Virus record (IMG/VR): IMGVR_UViG_3300010430_000013
Span: 1 to 64,000 of that record
DNA: 64,000 nt
Strand: one strand, 5' to 3'
Origin: a virus
Shown here: positions 28,380 through 60,954 of the stretch, piece by piece
Layout of the letters: each line of letters begins with the position of its first letter
Position numbering within the stretch: position 1 is the stretch's first letter
Program-made: the position numbers and the translations under genes
Notes under the pieces: model-generated
The model's input: the letters and a program-made list of their open reading frames with translations, nothing else
Databases searched by the model: none
What the model was told of the DNA's origin: nothing

Positions 28380-28751
28380 ATGTCCAATAACAAACAGCCA
28401 AATAGACACGTCTGGTTCTTCCGCCTTGCAGGTGGAGGAAACCAATGCACTGAATACAGAACTAGTGAAAAAGAAGCCGCGATGCGTCTCTTGCACGACG
28501 AATATGGAGAAACCGCAGTCGATGCTGTTCGGCGGGAGTTGACGTTTTTTGAATACGCTGGACTGCTCCGGTGTAATTACGAGGGGTACGGGCGGCAGGT
28601 GTATCAAGCGTTGCAGGACTTCTTTTTTCGGTGCGACCCGCGAGGACATAAGGGCTTTGACGACGAGACGTTAATCCGGTCGCAGTCCGACATCCAAGCA
28701 GGCAGGGTGCTGTCCACGGAGGAATACCTTGAGGACTTAAGGAAAGACTAA
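28380..28751 (+). CDS. Cassette 7: hypothetical protein
   Basis: AGGA SD; stop 4 nt before the last repeat core. Confidence 0.6.
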   Translation: MSNNKQPNRHVWFFRLAGGGNQCTEYRTSEKEAAMRLLHDEYGETAVDAVRRELTFFEYAGLLRCNYEGYGRQVYQALQDFFFRCDPRGHKGFDDETLIRSQSDIQAGRVLSTEEYLEDLRKD

Positions 28752-54451: not shown

Positions 54452-54832
54452 ATGGCTAACTCTTACAATCACTCGGTTCTGGTCGGCAACGTTGTTCGTG
54501 ATACGGAAATTCGCGATGCCGGAAAGTCTAAGGTAGCAGACAATGCTATCGCCATTACGGAGACTTTCGGGGAAAAGGAAGTAACAACATTTGTTGACAT
54601 TACTCTTTGGGGACGAAATGCTGAAACGTTTCAGAAGTTCTGCCCTAAAGGTCGCACGGTCTTGATTGAAGGCTCTCTTCGTCAAGACAAGTGGACAGAC
54701 AACGACGGCAACAAACGTTCTAAAATGTTTGTTAATGTCGACCGATTTGTTCTTTTAGGCTCAAAGCCTGGCGGTGGTCAGCAGCAGGAAACTGTTGCGG
54801 CAGGAGCAGGCTCGGATGATCTCCCCTTCTAA
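54452..54832 (+). CDS. ssb: Single-stranded DNA-binding protein
   Basis: LVGNVVRD.E, FVDITLWG..AE, IEGSLRQDKW...DG.KRSK, C-terminal DDLPF. Confidence 0.95.
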   Translation: MANSYNHSVLVGNVVRDTEIRDAGKSKVADNAIAITETFGEKEVTTFVDITLWGRNAETFQKFCPKGRTVLIEGSLRQDKWTDNDGNKRSKMFVNVDRFVLLGSKPGGGQQQETVAAGAGSDDLPF

Positions 54833-54863
54833 GCCTCCCTCTCGCTTAGAAGGCACTTCGATG

Positions 54864-54896
54864 CGCCTGCGTGCTCGTAGCACGCAGGCGTTTTTT
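54864..54896 (+). terminator. Intrinsic terminator
   Basis: Perfect 12-bp stem CGCCTGCGTGCT/AGCACGCAGGCG followed by T6. Confidence 0.85.
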
Positions 54897-54914
54897 ATTC
54901 TTTTGGAGTTGTTT

Positions 54915-56420
54915 ATGTATCACCCCGGCGTAATGACTCACGGCTCTGTTTTGCAAAGTGCAGTACACCCGGAGCATATTCAGGATTTTATCAATAATTC
55001 TGACTACTCCATGCTGCCAATCCTTGACTGGAATCTTAGTCAGGCTTACCCGTATATAGACTCGACCGAACAACCTGTAATCGGTCTATTGAAAAACTTT
55101 ACACAAGATAATGTTGAGATAACCTGCGCCCTCTATGCCCTCAATCGAAAGGGGTTTGGCGAGCTGCTCAGAATATCCAACGGGCTCCCAATTGCGGATA
55201 ATTGCAAGAATATTGCAGCACTCTCGCCGGAAGCTTTAAATATCCCGGATCTTGAAGATATTGACCTGCATATCAAGACATTCAATCCTATAGCCCCAGC
55301 GCTCGTTCTAAGGGACTCTCAGCTTGATCACCATAAGGTACTCATTAACAAAGCAAAAGGCGAATACGACGCGCCTGTGCCCCTAGAAAACGATGTTACC
55401 GATTGGTCTTGTTTAGCGCCGCTTTATGAGGCCGTAGAGAAATACAGTTTGGACAACAATCCTAGGCTTCCTCACTTTCCAACGGGAGACAAAACTGAAG
55501 ACGAATTTCTCCGCGAACTCTGCGTTAAATCCTTAAAAGATAAAAATTTAGAGAGTGAAATATACCTTAGCCGTTTAAATTATGAGCTACAGACGTTCGA
55601 AAACGCCGGAATGAGTGGTTATTTCCTAATTATGTGGGATATTTGCCGCTTTATTCAGGAGAGTGGCTCTATGTTGGGGGCTGGTCGTGGGTCTGCTGCG
55701 GGTTGTTTAGCGAGTTATCTGCTGGGCGTTACTAAAGTTGACCCGATTAAGTACGACCTAATCTTCGAAAGATTCTATAATCCTGACCGAAAGGGCGTAC
55801 CCGATATCGATTGCGACATTGTGCCGGAATTTAGACCTAAAGTTATTGATTATTTAAGAGACAAGTATGGTTCCGAGAAAGTTGCACAGCTTTGCACTTA
55901 CACTACTTTTAAAGGTCGAGGAGCCCTCAAAGAAACCCTAAAGCAACACGGAATGTCGCACGCAGAGGCAAATAAGGTAACTGAATGCCTTCATGAAGAA
56001 TCTAAAATTGATCCACAGCTCAAAGACCAGTATAATTCATTAGGGACTAAAAGTGTGCTTCTGTACACTTTAATGCATAGTCGAAGACTCGATTTCTGGT
56101 GTAAATTTAATAGGAAGACAAGTAAATACACTGGTAAGTGGGCGGATGCCTTCAAACTGGCAGTTGAGATGGACAGAACTAATATTGCAATTGGCAAACA
56201 CGCTTCGGCTTTTATTCTGTCAGATAGAAATTTGCTAGATCAGTGTCCTGTTATACCAGATCCGGCCAACGGGCCTCACCCAGTTTGTGGCTGGGAAATG
56301 AATGCGGCAGAAAGATCAGGTTTGGTTAAGTTGGATTTGTTGGGACTGGACTGCTTGTCTAAATACCAAAGAAGCAGAGAAGTCATATCTAGTAAATCAA
56401 TCTACTTGGAGGCCATATAA
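54915..56420 (+). CDS. dnaE: DNA polymerase III alpha, N-terminal half (reduced PHP plus palm)
   Basis: RLNYEL, GYFLIMWD, GAGRGSAAG, FERFYNPDR...PDIDCD, GKHASA, GLVKLDLLGL; GGAG SD. Confidence 0.9.
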   Translation: MYHPGVMTHGSVLQSAVHPEHIQDFINNSDYSMLPILDWNLSQAYPYIDSTEQPVIGLLKNFTQDNVEITCALYALNRKGFGELLRISNGLPIADNCKNIAALSPEALNIPDLEDIDLHIKTFNPIAPALVLRDSQLDHHKVLINKAKGEYDAPVPLENDVTDWSCLAPLYEAVEKYSLDNNPRLPHFPTGDKTEDEFLRELCVKSLKDKNLESEIYLSRLNYELQTFENAGMSGYFLIMWDICRFIQESGSMLGAGRGSAAGCLASYLLGVTKVDPIKYDLIFERFYNPDRKGVPDIDCDIVPEFRPKVIDYLRDKYGSEKVAQLCTYTTFKGRGALKETLKQHGMSHAEANKVTECLHEESKIDPQLKDQYNSLGTKSVLLYTLMHSRRLDFWCKFNRKTSKYTGKWADAFKLAVEMDRTNIAIGKHASAFILSDRNLLDQCPVIPDPANGPHPVCGWEMNAAERSGLVKLDLLGLDCLSKYQRSREVISSKSIYLEAI

Positions 56421-57723: not shown

Positions 57724-58421
57724 TTTTAGTTACGGATTTGGAGACAATAGACTTAAATAAAAATAAGGTTTCTCATGAGACTGCAATTCCCGTACAACTT
57801 GCGGCCATCCCTCTGGATGAGAATTCTCTGGAGATTATCGACGACCCTCTGTGTATGTGGATTAATCCTGGCGAAGAAATACTTAATTCACCGTCCTTTT
57901 ATCAAGATTACTCAAATGTTTTGGCCTTTCATGAAAAAGCACAAGGTAAACCAAAAGAGGAACTTGTCGAACTCTGGCGCTCAGGATTGGCCACGAGAGA
58001 CGCGATGAAAGAATTTAAGGATTACGTTAAGTCTTATACCAAGGGCTCAAAAAAAGCATATTTTGGAGGTATGAACGTCAGAAATTTCGACATACCTATT
58101 CTAGAGCGTTTAATCGACAAAGGCTGGCCCTTTGCTAAAGTTAAGACTTGGGATATTAGAGACGTTGCCCAAATGTGGTTCGAATATTCTCGCAACCCAC
58201 CTAAGTTGAACGGTAGAGTCAGCTATAGCTTCGACTCTTTGCGTCAATACTTTGATATGAGCACAGAGAATGCTCACGACGCCCTTGTTGACGTTAGGCA
58301 AGAAGCAGACCTGCTCAGAAGATTTTTACGACTTCAGAAGAACCTAATGACTTACGGTTATCAACACAGAGACCAAAAGGCATTTGCTTGGGCTAAAGTT
58401 CTTCATGGAGTTAAGTCTTGA
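57720..58421 (+). CDS. DnaQ/DEDDh 3'-5' exonuclease
   Basis: TDLET, N.RNFDIPIL, WDIRD, AHDALVDV. Confidence 0.85.
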   Translation: MILVTDLETIDLNKNKVSHETAIPVQLAAIPLDENSLEIIDDPLCMWINPGEEILNSPSFYQDYSNVLAFHEKAQGKPKEELVELWRSGLATRDAMKEFKDYVKSYTKGSKKAYFGGMNVRNFDIPILERLIDKGWPFAKVKTWDIRDVAQMWFEYSRNPPKLNGRVSYSFDSLRQYFDMSTENAHDALVDVRQEADLLRRFLRLQKNLMTYGYQHRDQKAFAWAKVLHGVKS

Positions 58422-59014
58422 GCTTAGGCGATAAGATTAAAGCGCTAAGAAATAAAGGATATTCTTACAACGAAATAGCAAAAGAGCTTGGTTGCTCTAA
58501 AGGCACTGTTTCGTATCATTGTGGAGAGGGTCAAAAGGATAAGGCAGAAGCCAGAAGAAAAAAACGAAGGAAAGAAAAGCCTGTCGACAGAAAGGTTGAA
58601 AATTTTCATGCTGAGAGAACATCATCCTTTGAACAATCTATTGTTAGAAATAATAACGAAAGAATTTCAGGGAAGATAGCGCTTTTTCATAGTTGTGGGA
58701 GTAGAATGAAAACTAAATATACACCAAGAACCTTCAGCGTGAGCGAAGCAAAAGAACTACTAGAAGAACGAGGAGTTTGTTATTTGACTGGAGATCCAAT
58801 CGACCCAGAAGACAGTCAATCTTATCATTTTGATCACATTAAGCCAAGGTCCGCAGGGGGAGAAAATACAATCGATAATTTAGGAATTTCTTCACCAGAG
58901 GCTAATTATGCCAAGGGAAGCATGGAATTTGAGGACTTCATAAAAATGTGTCATAAAATAGTGAAGAGATATCCTGATCCAGAAGACCCAAGACCAAAAC
59001 ACGAAAGGGGCTGA
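58418..59014 (+). CDS. HTH plus HNH endonuclease
   Basis: GYSYNEIAKELGCSKGTVSYH; CYLTG, FDHIKPRSAGG.N..DNL......N.AKG. Confidence 0.8.
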   Translation: MSLGDKIKALRNKGYSYNEIAKELGCSKGTVSYHCGEGQKDKAEARRKKRRKEKPVDRKVENFHAERTSSFEQSIVRNNNERISGKIALFHSCGSRMKTKYTPRTFSVSEAKELLEERGVCYLTGDPIDPEDSQSYHFDHIKPRSAGGENTIDNLGISSPEANYAKGSMEFEDFIKMCHKIVKRYPDPEDPRPKHERG

Positions 59015-59142
59015 AATAGTTTCGATTCGAAGTCAAGTGATGCGTCTGCCGTGGGAGGCAAAAAGGTCTAACTGCACTAGCAAAAAAGCCTTGGCGTTAT
59101 CAGCAGCTTTTGAAGACCTCGGGGCAGGACCGAGCAGCTCCA
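59007..59142 (+). ncRNA. ssrA: Minimal tmRNA-like RNA (136 nt)
   Basis: Acceptor stem GGGGCTG/CAGCTCC with G3-U70 and discriminator A; 5' GGGGCTGA..TTCGA; T-arm CTCGG-GGCAGGA-CCGAG preceded by GAC; helix 2 TTCGAA..TGATGCGTC / GGCGTTATCA..TTTGAA; CCA not encoded. Confidence 0.75.
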
Positions 59143-59162
59143 CTTTTTTCAAAGGAGAAGCA

Positions 59163-59366
59163 ATGGGTGAATTTTTTGTAGAGGCCATTTTTGGCATGAT
59201 AGTGTCTGCGGTTATTGTAACCGCGCTTGTTGTGGGAGGAGTTACGTTTGCCGTGACTTGGTATTTCAGTCAACCTCCTTCAGAAGCTCAAGTCTTAAAA
59301 GAAGGGCAACGACAACAAGTTATCGAAAAACTTACACCTGAAGAACGAGAATTGCTGGGCGTTTAA
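59163..59366 (+). CDS. Small membrane protein
   Basis: AGGAG SD; hydrophobic N-terminal half; C-terminal KLTPEERELLG. Confidence 0.65.
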   Translation: MGEFFVEAIFGMIVSAVIVTALVVGGVTFAVTWYFSQPPSEAQVLKEGQRQQVIEKLTPEERELLGV

Positions 59367-59367
59367 T

Positions 59368-60954
59368 ATGATTTTTGATTGTGGGTGCGAATTTCACCAA
59401 ACAGAAGACGGCGGCTGGACTTGGGACGACGAGAATATTAATTTTCAATGTCCAAAAGTTTGGAGGTTAATTTGTTCTGGCAATACGTCTGGCGTCTTTC
59501 AGCTGGACGCTATGCTGGGTCAACATTGGTCCAGGCAGGTCAAGCCAGAAAACATTAATGAATGGTCTGATCTTATTGCTATTATCCGTCCTGGTATGCT
59601 GGAAGCTATCGTGGACGGAAAGAGCCAGACTCAGCGCTATGTTGACAGAAAACACGGCAAAGAGAGTGTCGCGTTCGACCATCCAAAGCTAGAGGAGGTT
59701 CTAGGACCAACTCAAGCTACCATGCCGTTTCAAGAGCAAGCCATGAGAATCGCCACAGACTTGGCGGGGTTCACAATGGCCGAGTCGGATACTTACATTC
59801 GCAAGGGTATCGGCAAGAAGATTCCTGAGGTGATTGCCAAAGCCAAGGAAATGTTCATCGAGGGATGCCTCAAGAATAATATCTCCAAAGAATTAGCCGA
59901 AAGAATCTTTACGTCTATCGAGGCTGCACAGCGATATTCGTTCAATAGGTCACACAGTCTTAGTTACGCTCTGGATGGTTATATTTATTCAGCATATATC
60001 AAAGCGCATTTTCCGCTGGAGTTTCATTGCACAGAATTAGACTTTGCTAAGGGCAAGCAGCCTAAGACTGACCTTGAGGCCGTCTGTGACATCATCGAGG
60101 ATGCCCTAAAGATGGACATCAAGGTTATGAAACCCGACCTTAGATATTTAAATGAAAGATTTTCTATAGTTGACGGCACCATCCTTTACGGCTTAACTAA
60201 GATAAAGCATCTCGGTCCCGATAAAATTCGAGCACTTCCAGAGCTGAAAGACGCTACTTACATAGAGCTTATCGCTGCCTTAGACAAAATAAACAAAACT
60301 TCCGCAGAAAACTTAATCAAAAGCGGGTCTTGTGATTGGATCAAAGCGCCTCGTTCTAAAATGTTGGCAGACTATGCGGCTTACTCCAAGCTAAATGTGC
60401 AGCAAAAAGAAGTTTGTGTAGAAGAATCTGACGTTCTTAAGGGAATTCAAAAAATTATAGAAATTGGGCCGTCCACCAAGAGCAAGCTGTGCTATAATAA
60501 AGTGTCGCTAAAAAAATTAAAGGAACTTGAGAATCTCCTCGTGAATCCAATCCGACAGCCAAAAGACACCCCTCAAAAGATTATTGACTGGGAAAAGGAA
60601 ACACTTGGGCGCTCATTTACTTTTGATGAGGCTTTGACTCGTTATTGGGATGGGAATTACAAAGAGTTGATTGATGTTAAGCATCATTCTGTCCCCCTAA
60701 AAGATCAATTCCTGTTGAGCGCGGTTCTCAGGGACTTTAAAGAAATTTACACCAAGAAAAAACAAGAACCTATGGCTCGAATAACTGTTTACAGTTTAGA
60801 TTGGGTCAGTGATGCGGTTATATTTCCTAGGGCTTGGGAATTGTGCAAGCATGCGATTGAATCTAATGTCGGCCAGCCGCTTTTATTCAAAGCCAGAATG
60901 AATTTCTACAACGAGCAATGGGGCCTAGTAATCGAGGAGATAGAAGATGTCTAG
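59368..60954 (+). CDS. dnaE: DNA polymerase III alpha, C-terminal half (fingers, HhH, OB)
   Basis: G.TSGVFQL, IAIIRPG, FQEQAM.IA..LAGF, RKGIGKK, YSFNRSHS.SY, YIKAHFP.EF, YGLTKIK, WEKETLG, MA.IT..VIFP. Confidence 0.9.
   Translation: MIFDCGCEFHQTEDGGWTWDDENINFQCPKVWRLICSGNTSGVFQLDAMLGQHWSRQVKPENINEWSDLIAIIRPGMLEAIVDGKSQTQRYVDRKHGKESVAFDHPKLEEVLGPTQATMPFQEQAMRIATDLAGFTMAESDTYIRKGIGKKIPEVIAKAKEMFIEGCLKNNISKELAERIFTSIEAAQRYSFNRSHSLSYALDGYIYSAYIKAHFPLEFHCTELDFAKGKQPKTDLEAVCDIIEDALKMDIKVMKPDLRYLNERFSIVDGTILYGLTKIKHLGPDKIRALPELKDATYIELIAALDKINKTSAENLIKSGSCDWIKAPRSKMLADYAAYSKLNVQQKEVCVEESDVLKGIQKIIEIGPSTKSKLCYNKVSLKKLKELENLLVNPIRQPKDTPQKIIDWEKETLGRSFTFDEALTRYWDGNYKELIDVKHHSVPLKDQFLLSAVLRDFKEIYTKKKQEPMARITVYSLDWVSDAVIFPRAWELCKHAIESNVGQPLLFKARMNFYNEQWGLVIEEIEDV

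Follow-up and report, generated by a model that had tools for sequence, protein, structure and literature searches.

A reduced tmRNA gene in a split dnaE locus

The stretch of DNA analysed here (64,000 nt, hereafter the window) belongs to the 89.7-kb record of a marine-sediment phage in which dnaE is split by an insertion bearing an HNH endonuclease gene. Within this insertion lies a genuine tmRNA-derived phage gene, which is one-piece and miniature and whose parts are listed in Table 1. Its 5' end overlaps the upstream gene, as a first, sequence-only reading of the locus had noticed, with the HNH stop codon (TGA, 59012–59014) falling inside the 5' acceptor strand. A promoter scan returned no convincing promoter directly upstream of the RNA, and a search for RNA sequencing runs containing the stretch gave none. 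No integrase was found in the record and neither was a SmpB gene, so that host SmpB would be used, although the record is ~59% complete and SmpB or tRNA genes may lie in the missing part.

Table 1 Features of the locus and of the reduced RNA gene (window coordinates).
Feature	Positions	Strand	Remarks
DnaE N-half	54774–56420	+	PF07733, E 2.1e-62
HTH-HNH endonuclease gene	58418–59014	+	Pfam HTH_38, HNH_4, HNH; PHROG HNH endonuclease
Reduced 136-nt tmRNA-derived RNA gene	59007–59142	+	CCA not encoded; 3' boundary is the end of homology in contig X3
Acceptor stem, 5' strand GGGGCTG	59007–59013	+	G3 is 59009; pairs 7/7 with 59135–59141
D-loop analogue AAATAGTTTCGAT	59014–59026	+	TCGAT co-varies with AGAC; GG absent, like every G-type T-loop form
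Helix 2, 5' strand (predicted)	59026–59032	+	Partner 59108–59114; MFE and constrained folds
Small hairpin TGCC-GTGGGA-GGCA at the pseudoknot 1 site	59047–59060	+	From folds; placement inferred
Resume-like context, TCTAAC then TGC/GCA	59067–59076	+	TAACT-GCA at 59069–59076; aligns with TAAAC-GGA of L101/L104
Relic tag frame CTSKKALALSAA	59073–59108	+	12 codons, then TTT GAA; by translation, no in-frame stop up to the RNA end
Helix 2, 3' strand (predicted)	59108–59114	+	MFE and constrained folds
AGAC linker preceding the T-arm	59114–59117	+	
T-arm CTCGG / GGCAGGA / CCGAG	59118–59134	+	5 bp; same loop in one other phage record (L087/G001)
Acceptor 3' strand CAGCTCC and discriminator A	59135–59142	+	3' strand at 59135–59141
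Predicted 67-aa membrane ORF, outside the RNA	59163–59366	+	AAGGAG 5 nt upstream; strain-variable
DnaE C-half	59368–60954	+	PF17657, PF14579; X3 joint 59142>59368, directly downstream of the RNA

The Ala-type tRNA-like domain (TLD) proposed in the sequence-only reading (G3-U70, discriminator A, T-loop GGCAGGA) held up in both its coordinates and its pairing, with G59009:T59139 as the third acceptor pair and A59142 as discriminator. Helix 2, proposed alongside it, was recovered in the folds as a predicted helix of 7 bp including two G:U pairs. An inner helix encloses ~45 nt and the interior of the RNA comprises ~75 structured nt including a tag relic; taken as a whole, the RNA has an unremarkable MFE (z = −0.88). 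The molecule does not form a tRNA-Ala cloverleaf, since it has no anticodon arm and ARAGORN gives no tRNA, and its ..TTCGAY D-loop analogue and RGAC linker are of tmRNA type and form the pair that covaries where helix 2 begins.

The interior is strongly reduced. Only a 4-bp hairpin stands where pseudoknot 1 would be, inspection by eye found no pseudoknot partner for it, and pseudoknots 2–4 (or replacements for them) are absent, no sequence being left between the relic tag and the 3' helix 2 strand; the earlier description of an RNA without these pseudoknots and without a normal terminated tag frame was accurate. Translation likewise bore out its account of a TAACT-GCA context followed by a GCA frame without a stop, of CAC-TAG in the +1 frame and of a stop-less ALALSAA in the third frame. 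The choice of GCA as the resume-like codon stood in part: the context is present, but TGC at 59073, one base upstream, fits at least equally well. From this TGC the relic frame reads the tag-like ..ALALSAA, and its end (GCGTTA..GCAGCT) is similar to GCGTTAGCTGCTTGA, the end of the tag in L153, one of the short phage tmRNAs compared below. On translation the tag-like frame shows no canonical resume codon, and the frames from GCA 59074 and TGC 59073 both run stop-less to the 3' end, the TAA, TAG and TGA stops all being in the one remaining frame; TGA 59111–59113 lies 2 nt out of the relic frame. A double −1 frameshift (A AAA AAG, then T TTT) that reaches this TGA is conceivable on paper and unsupported.

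Specificity, covariation and detection by tmRNA models

The bare geometry of a 7-bp acceptor with G3:U and an adjacent T-arm is common (144 matches in 1.24 Mb, both strands), and among these matches tmRNA sequence was present only at 59007–59142. A composite mini-tmRNA pattern matched once in the window vs. never in 100 shuffles, and gave no match when scanned over viral contigs. The 5' 19-mer of the RNA, GGGGCTGAAATAGNTTCGA, occurs at 18 viral loci. In 13 of them a tmRNA can be recognised from its length, its tag or a call by ARAGORN; the remaining five comprise L087, which has no recognisable tag, and four copies that are truncated or lack a located 3' end. Two covariations measured on 67 unique one-piece sequences are both intact here. 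In the linker, TCGAC goes with GGAC (41/41) and TCGAT with AGAC (17/17), the RNA being TCGAT/AGAC, while GGC/TGC T-loops go with a GG-less D-loop (46/46) and TTC with GG (15/15), the RNA having GGC and no GG.

The sequence-only reading had suggested ARAGORN and Infernal tmRNA models as a check; ARAGORN and the Rfam models make no call at 59007–59142 at standard thresholds. Rfam at gathering thresholds, including RF00023, gave 0 matches; RF02544, whose gathering score is 65, gives the RNA 16.4 bits, and the Rfam model of the tRNA domain, tmRNA_permuted, run on a 161-nt stretch, matches both halves (22.6 bits, E 0.0037; 13.4 bits, E 0.47). ARAGORN reported 0 genes in the window, in the whole record and in 80 DnaE-related loci (see below), and relaxed thresholds yielded noise only. 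Since this program also misses checked one-piece forms whose T-loop is of the GGC or TGC type (among them L091, L101, L102, L104, L107 and L153) as well as 12 of 12 mini forms of 79–80 nt, its miss here is uninformative.

The GGC-type T-loop is similar to the consensus of mt-tmRNA and of alphaproteobacterial forms, in which the sequence-only reading had noted loops of this type, but such loops are not confined to those forms and are frequent in one-piece tmRNAs of ~375–415 nt from metagenomes. The exact loop GGCAGGA was not found in cellular tmRNAs; five genome-contig matches all lack a T-stem and hence are due to chance. Separately, L140 is a 73-nt tRNA-Ala(UGC)-like gene with T-loop GGCAGTA, and L229/L281 is a 73-nt tRNA-Ala-like gene.

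Conservation between strains

Several coastal and sediment studies yielded samples in which the RNA is conserved. Relatives carrying a full-length tmRNA, which would make this copy a unique deletion, had been named as an outcome that would speak against the sequence-only reading; instead the closest relatives seen, contigs from four other sequencing runs, bear the same kind of mini form. The RNA is unchanged in contigs from other samples whose flanking genes differ by ~3–4.5%. Contig X2 (covering 58798–59145) has seven differences, which lie in the HNH gene and extend no further than 58939, and none in 58955–59145, X4 (58998–59148) has none at all, and X5 (58884–59087) differs at 58894 and 58897 only. 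With 16 of 466 nt (~3.4%) differing in the X2 flanks, the Poisson expectation is 6.6 differences in 191 nt, and the probability of finding none is ~0.001. As X2, X4 and X5 carry the same HNH variants they count as a single lineage, not as three separate witnesses, and their identical RNA stretch could reflect recent exchange instead of selection.

Contig X3 represents a more distant strain (~6% different in HNH, with the HNH-RNA-dnaE(C) locus 93% identical) that retains the RNA, with about 6 to 14 differences by count in 58955–59142. Its homology stops exactly at 59142 and restarts at 59368, with 59143–59367 exchanged for 20 other letters, so that the RNA and the start of dnaE(C) are 20 nt apart in this strain. 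The HNH differences between strains sit at third codon positions.

Beyond these strains, blastn against GenBank phages gave no match, and a search for related loci with a single DnaE C-half query found none. The DnaE alignment A1 query retrieved the 80 related loci mentioned above (31–53% identity in the best segment), none of which has a GGGGCTG-type TLD within ~8 kb. The proposed search for homologs in related phages came out negative at this distance within that span.

Comparison with known and newly found reduced tmRNAs

A TLD-only phage tmRNA is already in print for mycobacteriophage DS6A (Mao et al. 2009, cited by PMC4131195 and PMC11915505). The citing papers report that a TLD-only molecule like that of DS6A has an inhibitory effect on tmRNA in E. 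coli, perhaps via SmpB titration; a 2025 tmRNA database is described as holding nine 'standard, no CDS' sequences. We located the DS6A RNA at JN698994 28478–28557 (80 nt), where the deposited DS6A record carries no annotation of it. Like the RNA described here, it is phage-encoded and one-piece. Both have G3:U70 in an acceptor of 7 bp, A as discriminator, a T-arm and a short stem resembling helix 2, and both lack a usable tag message and an encoded CCA. It differs in having a canonical TTCGATT T-loop (GGCAGGA here) and no trace of a message, whereas the 136-nt RNA retains the resume-like context and the 12-codon tag relic and overlaps the HNH stop; homology between the two is undetectable beyond the shared TLD consensus. 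The DS6A RNA begins ~10 nt past gp33, and that of another mini form, L160, ~11 nt past a stop, neither overlapping its upstream gene.

By its one-piece order, its intact TLD, its being nearer to tmRNA than to tRNA and its lack of a terminable CDS, the RNA belongs with the CDS-less, TLD-only forms; it exceeds the ~65–80 nt of molecules that are little more than a TLD and is a longer variant. Reduced phage forms recur at 68, 79, 80, 226, 227 and 280–282 nt, and pattern scans found two families of 79–80-nt forms in 12 viral loci and 68-nt forms in two metagenome loci. The sequence-only reading had considered the RNA unusual, a view that does not survive the published DS6A case and this recurrence in phages. 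A literature search found no stop-less phage tmRNA forms of greater length, and the supplementary entries of the tmRNA database (PMC11915505) may include some.

The nearest complete counterparts are short phage tmRNAs, namely L101/L104 (280–282 nt; tag GKCKNSYALAA, then stop), whose first 22 nt match the RNA save one base, and L153, a complete one-piece phage tmRNA of 227 nt (tag ANDYFYPTALAA, then stop); these tags were read by eye and are not ARAGORN calls. All share with the RNA the TCGAT/AGAC pair, GAAGACC ahead of the T-arm and an end in ..CAGCTCCAC without CCA. The resume context TAAAC-GGA of the short phage tmRNAs aligns with CTAAC-TGC here and the tag end GCGTTA..GCTGCT is similar, but L101, L104 and L153 have an in-frame stop and 90–150 nt more RNA past the tag, and the 136-nt RNA has neither.

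The sole other sequence found with the GGCAGGA T-loop is L087 (G001:476–701, 226 nt), from a second uncultured phage. As here, its CCA is unencoded and no canonical tag was recognised, and the 5' 19-mer is identical; it is 90 nt longer, of the TCGAC/GGAC type and inside an array of 24 tRNA genes. The DnaE halves of the two phages are just 26–30% identical, and the RNA interiors do not align. Message-less tmRNAs of mitochondria (jakobid, oomycete) and the ~65-bp forms of plastids likewise retain the TLD without a tag frame (RF02544; PMC11915505). As described there, these organellar forms are mostly permuted and derive from two-piece alphaproteobacterial genes, whereas the present RNA is a one-piece phage form.

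Interpretation and alternatives

Taken with the observed anatomy, covariations, strain conservation and gene boundary, these comparisons lead us to favour, with moderate confidence, a genuine shrunken phage tmRNA gene that would act as a competitor of host tmRNA. Its most likely origin is a short phage tmRNA of the one-piece kind, in which an internal deletion removed everything from just past the tag up to the 3' helix 2 strand. Such a deletion would have kept the full TLD, helix 2, the hairpin in the place of pseudoknot 1, the resume-like context and the tag relic, whose stop is now out of frame. We infer expression, processing, charging, SmpB binding and an effect on the host as follows. 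RNase P would free the RNA at 59007 from an HNH-RNA-dnaE(C) transcript, a 3' tRNA-processing nuclease would cleave at 59142 and the CCA-adding enzyme would append CCA; host AlaRS would then charge the RNA (G3:U70, A73), and host SmpB (and EF-Tu) would bind it. Because there is no terminable message, trans-translation would not be completed and the RNA would act as a competitor, by SmpB titration and/or occupancy of stalled ribosomes, the outcome being less degradation tagging during infection. By analogy, the published DS6A-like molecule lends indirect support to a role of the RNA as SmpB decoy, and phage RNAs of this kind probably interfere with the host rescue-and-tag system. For the other two roles put forward in the sequence-only reading, rescue without tagging and a decoy for RNA-cleaving defences, the analysis brought up no evidence.

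That the gene is instead a decaying pseudogene, left functionless and on its way out by the deletion and the loss of its stop codon, appears rather unlikely to us. The missing in-frame stop, canonical resume codon and pseudoknots 2–4, the absence of a promoter of its own and the finding of this type of mini form in close strains of the phage only would all fit decay. Against it, the X2/X4 lineage has no change over 136 nt vs. ~3.4% in both flanks, every TLD pair and both covariations are intact, the X3 strain has kept the RNA while losing the adjacent ORF, and TLD-only forms arise repeatedly and independently in many phages.

We also consider it unlikely that the RNA performs tag-free rescue, a proposal made for message-less mitochondrial tmRNAs, in which the charged RNA and SmpB would donate alanine and free the ribosome untagged, so that truncated phage proteins persist. 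The intact alanine identity set and the retained resume-like context are consistent with it, as is the reported conservation of message-less organellar tmRNAs along with SmpB (PMC11915505). No route to termination is known, however, for a message that lacks a stop codon; a ribosome reading the relic frame would pass through helix 2 and the T-arm, reach the 3' end and stall anew, and the sole published test of a similar molecule is reported to show inhibition, not rescue (PMC4131195).

A role as processing signal, in which the tRNA-like fold is an RNase P/3'-nuclease site that separates the HNH and dnaE(C) messages, seems improbable as the main explanation. Cleavage at 59007 would strip the HNH message of its stop and make it non-stop, keeping the endonuclease scarce; both the position of that stop in the 5' acceptor strand and the short distance from the RNA to dnaE(C) in X3 point this way. 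Yet an ordinary tRNA or some other hairpin of tRNA-like shape would suffice for this purpose, which leaves the kept tmRNA-specific D-loop, linker and helix 2 features unexplained, and other minis (DS6A, L160) lack the upstream overlap. Such processing can go together with competition against host tmRNA.

That 59007–59142 is no RNA gene at all, being a chance fold or terminator, the N-terminus of a 109-aa protein (GTG 59037 to 59366) or an attachment-site copy of a host tmRNA 3' end, is very improbable in spite of the open frame, the T-run at 59144–59149 and the frequency of the bare geometry, given the result of the shuffles. The long ORF is not a unit, because X3 has 59007–59142 without 59143–59367, and ATG 59163 has its own AAGGAG; the terminator scan made no call and the T-run is not conserved in X3. 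An attachment-site copy would hold the 3' part only and lie beside an integrase, whereas both ends are present here and the record has none. An intron or homing-endonuclease insertion within a tmRNA gene was also considered and rejected, no further TLD piece lying near HNH genes.

A more speculative idea, to which we give little credence, is that the stop-less relic and the HNH-stop overlap are not accidents and form one regulatory circuit. In releasing the RNA, RNase P would then cleave the HNH mRNA 5 nt ahead of the stop codon and so make it non-stop, the mini-tmRNA would contest host tmRNA for those same stalled ribosomes, and its reading would take ribosomes onto an exit-less message. One 136-nt RNA would thus throttle the phage's own homing endonuclease and blunt host tagging, with the phage-specific GGCAGGA loop (absent from the scanned cellular genomes) marking a TLD that binds SmpB without completing the cycle.

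For the specialist the surprise is modest, the kind of RNA and its likely mode of action being published already, as cited above. Message-less phage tmRNA genes are nevertheless represented in print by the single case of DS6A, and as ARAGORN called none of the mini forms it was run on (L186 was left out), the class is under-annotated. The 136-nt RNA is a longer, probably deletion-derived, stop-less variant of the published TLD-only kind. As an intermediate in which the site of the message is still visible, it would document how a short, working phage tmRNA can be reduced by deletion to a TLD-only form. If the function proposed here is true, many phages would bear a small RNA inhibitor of bacterial quality control, a system that is also a drug target.

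Anatomy of the RNA and its locus

Re-reading of the sequence bore out the description in the sequence-only reading of a 136-nt one-piece tmRNA at 59007-59142 (+), which keeps the tRNA-like domain (TLD) and a predicted helix 2 around a short interior lacking pseudoknots 2-4 and a normal tag frame (see table). CCA is absent from the DNA of the 136-nt RNA, a C and six T following directly after 59142. The RNA occupies the sole non-coding gap between the HNH gene and a 67-aa ORF, within a 2.9-kb insertion in the DnaE (pol III alpha) gene that also holds the HTH-HNH gene, an HNH/endonuclease VII-like gene and a proofreading exonuclease; the split separates the palm domain (PF07733) from the finger domain (PF17657). 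Stand-alone DnaE C-halves of ~500-560 aa are common in database matches, and inteins (PF14890) occur in some homologues. An 89.7-kb IMG/VR phage record (~59% complete) from a marine sediment metagenome is the source of the window, which spans its first 64 kb.

Features of the RNA, its locus and the 79-80-nt comparison families
Feature	Position or loci	Basis or strand	Remarks
Acceptor stem	GGGGCTG 59007-13 with CAGCTCC 59135-41	+	7/7 pairs, third pair G:T
Discriminator	A59142	+	read from sequence
T-arm CTCGG / GGCAGGA / CCGAG	59118-34	+	adjoins 3' acceptor strand
Helix 2	59026-32 with 59108-14	predicted	7 bp, two G:U
Inner helix		predicted	9 bp
Hairpin	59047-60	predicted	4 bp, at expected place of pseudoknot 1
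Short stem		predicted	fourth element of predicted fold
HTH-HNH endonuclease gene	58418-59014	Pfam and PHROG	stop codon inside the 5' strand of the RNA
67-aa membrane ORF	59163-59366	predicted	own AAGGAG
DnaE polymerase halves	54774-56420 and 59368-60954		separated by 2.9-kb insertion
79-nt TLD-only mini-tmRNAs	L348, L354, L359, L363, L370, L378, L382	IMG/VR loci	
80-nt TLD-only mini-tmRNAs	L355, L356, L362, L366, L381	IMG/VR loci	

The folding energy of the RNA is ordinary (z = -0.88). Its nearest likeness is to the phage tmRNAs L101 and L104 (280-282 nt), which share its first 22 nt bar one base and also match in the linker and 3' end, their resume context TAAAC/GGA aligning with CTAAC/TGC at 59073. 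From 59073 a frame of 12 codons (CTSKKALALSAA) can be read. It finishes with GCG TTA TCA GCA GCT, similar to the GCG TTA GCT GCT TGA that closes the tag of the 227-nt form at locus L153. This relic frame continues TTT GAA, with the TGA at 59111-13 lying 2 nt out of frame; the three stops in the RNA (TAA 59069, TAG 59078 and TGA 59111) are all in the third frame, and the 3' strand of the predicted helix 2 begins directly past the relic tag. Judged from the alignment, the simplest history would be an internal deletion and stop loss in a short one-piece phage tmRNA; no full-length sister tmRNA was found at the same locus. The RNA also contains an A AAA AAG heptamer (59082-59087) and a T TTT run (59108-59111), and on paper two -1 shifts would link GCA 59074, the ..ALALSAA frame and TGA 59111, a curiosity without support.

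Relationship to tmRNA

The bare geometry of the RNA is not rare, as 144 matches turned up when both strands of 1.24 Mb were scanned for a G3:U-bearing 7-bp acceptor next to a 5-bp/7-nt T-arm; its specificity, as judged from these comparisons, is in sequence and not in bare geometry. A composite pattern matched once in the window and never in 100 shuffles. The 5' 19-mer of the RNA, GGGGCTGAAATAGNTTCGA, was found in 18 viral loci, 13 of which hold a recognisable tmRNA (either a one-piece gene of 280-400 nt or a permuted coding piece whose tag is, for example, ANDNFAPQDFALAA), while the remaining five comprise L087, without a recognisable tag, and four copies that are incomplete or have no found 3' end. 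Against a 161-nt stretch, the tRNA-domain model tmRNA_permuted of Rfam matched 59093-59155 (22.6 bits, E 0.0037) and, for the other half, 58995-25 (13.4 bits, E 0.47), the two matches being separate since the model is built for permuted genes; the mt-tmRNA model reached 16.4 bits, and all Rfam scores of this stretch lie below the gathering scores.

The TLD was further compared across 67 unique one-piece sequences with GGGGCTG...T-arm...CAGCTCCA. The D-loop analogue base after TCGA and the base before the GAC that precedes the T-arm covary perfectly, with TCGAC accompanying GGAC in 41/41 cases and TCGAT accompanying AGAC in 17/17 (the motif is missing in nine of the 67), in sequence sets collected with patterns that fixed the D-loop, the T-loop or AGAC and never both partners together. 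Likewise, in these sets GGC/TGC T-loops go with a D-loop without GG (46/46) and TTC loops with GG (15/15). The window RNA is of the TCGAT/AGAC type, with a GGC T-loop and a D-loop without GG. On this evidence of sequence, its TLD is that of a tmRNA, foldable and with parts adapted to one another, rather than a collage. Taken as a whole, we are highly confident that the RNA is a real tmRNA-derived gene.

T-loop classes, reduced forms and standard detection

Only one other viral record carries the T-loop GGCAGGA, in a 226-nt tmRNA-like gene without a recognisable canonical tag (L087 476-701, equal to G001:C1:476-701), which has tRNA-Tyr and tRNA-Leu as its neighbours in a 24-tRNA array, is not called by ARAGORN and belongs to a distantly related phage whose DnaE halves are only 26-30% identical to those of the window. 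With the pattern used, the loop was absent from the cellular genomes of 185,579 species, the 5 matches all lacking a T-stem. In metagenomes GGCAGTA and GGCGGTA are common loops, carried by permuted alpha-type genes as well as by one-piece genes of ~400 nt, and the loop class is therefore normal; the earlier attribution of GGCAG-type T-loops to alphaproteobacterial and mitochondrial tmRNAs was too narrow, given these one-piece genes.

Reduced forms without encoded CCA recur at 68 nt (L160, L186), 79 nt (7 loci), 80 nt (5 loci), 226, 227 and 280-282 nt. Both TLD-only mini families (79 and 80 nt) have the canonical TTCGATT T-loop and an AGAC linker, and in the 80-nt one a TATACT box precedes the first G by 7 nt. 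The RNAs of the metagenome contigs L160 and L186, also TLD-only, combine a GGCAGTA T-loop with a very short middle and are the smallest forms found here. Another metagenome contig (L140) bears a 73-nt tRNA-Ala(UGC)-like gene with G3:U70 and a tmRNA-style GGCAGTA T-loop, which ARAGORN does not call; the gene comes after an ORF with an end that is HNH-like by eye, and it carries promoter-like boxes of its own. Among 400-nt one-piece tmRNAs in large-phage tRNA arrays, L091 and L102 are near-identical in body to L098 and differ at the 3' end (GGCAGTT/GGCGGTT plus CAGCTCC vs TTCGATT plus CAGTTCC), which suggests from sequence that T-arm/3' ends may have been swapped between G-type and T-type versions.

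ARAGORN called no gene in the window, the whole record or 80 related loci. Among the collected loci it missed one-piece tmRNAs with GGC- or TGC-type T-loops (L091, L102, L101, L104, L153 and all of some two dozen 374-415-nt genes) as well as 12/12 of the 79-80-nt mini forms, and called permuted forms; since comparable forms are missed, its silence on the window is uninformative. The two dozen genes (L107-L184, e.g. L111, L156, L161), from soil, gut and other metagenomes, have GGCRGTA T-loops and apparently unusually long tag frames.

Constraint among close strains

No GenBank phage matched, and identity to the nearest DnaE C-halves does not exceed 40% across most of their length; close strains of the phage are present in public runs of other studies, and contigs from these were aligned to 58400-59700. 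In the X2 contig (58798-59145) the 7 differences all fall within HNH, no further along than 58939, which leaves the final 52 nt of HNH and the RNA unchanged; with 16/466 nt differing in its flanks, 6.6 changes would be expected for 191 nt (P(0) ~0.001). X4 (58998-59148) shows zero differences and X5 (58884-59087) two, both in HNH. X2, X4 and X5 share the same HNH variants and are thus counted as one lineage; X2 and X4 break at 59145-59148.

The 10.4-kb X3 contig has 48 differences in 58400-59142; of these, the 34 listed all fall no later than 58954, and those at 58828-58954 are spaced in multiples of three, at third codon positions. X3 retains the RNA, and homology stops exactly at 59142, is followed by 20 other letters and resumes at 59368, the start of dnaE(C), the downstream half of the split gene. 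In X3 the RNA thus directly precedes dnaE(C), and the stretch 59143-59367 (67-aa ORF and T-run/RBS) is a strain-specific indel. The phage can therefore do without the 67-aa ORF and the T-run, the RNA does not belong to any longer ORF, and a real boundary of the module lies at 59142.

Possible function of the RNA

The most likely reading, which we hold with some reserve, is a released, charged and SmpB-bound competitor of host tmRNA. We infer each of its steps: tRNA-processing enzymes would release the RNA, CCA would be added, alanine would be attached, host SmpB would bind the product, and it would compete with host tmRNA while unable to finish trans-translation. No smpB gene is present in the 89.7-kb record (~59% complete).

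An inert pseudogene, with the lost stop and relic frame on one side and the unchanged RNA of the X2 lineage on the other, is unlikely. Slightly less probable again is tag-free rescue, as proposed in the sequence-only reading. The RNA could also act mainly as a processing signal that makes the HNH mRNA non-stop, the HNH stop codon lying within its 5' strand; in Carsonella the smpB CDS runs into ssrA, and a non-stop smpB mRNA is expected, as noted in PMC11915505. We consider this improbable as the main role, and it is compatible with the competitor reading. That there is no RNA gene here at all is scarcely credible beside the composite-pattern match, the X3 contig and the covariations.

Among published forms, complete two-piece tmRNAs are documented in marine phages (PMC9004378), and, as given in PMC11915505, bacteriophages account for 79 sequences of the 2025 tmRNA database and 'standard, no CDS' forms for 9. 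The TLD-only, message-less tmRNA of Mycobacterium phage DS6A was located at 28478-28557 (L389, JN698994; 80 nt, unannotated in the GenBank record), between gp33 and gp34, the latter being a DnaN sliding clamp that bears the label 'DNA polymerase III'; the DS6A RNA, in common with the window RNA, adjoins a replication gene and is not in a tRNA array. Literature searches turned up no account of longer forms from phages that lack a stop. The finding is solid and only moderately novel, the CDS-less class having already been published. Because the tag CDS and pseudoknots are lacking, the RNA falls outside standard tmRNA; its place is in the published CDS-less class, of which it is a longer variant still bearing the scar of its message.
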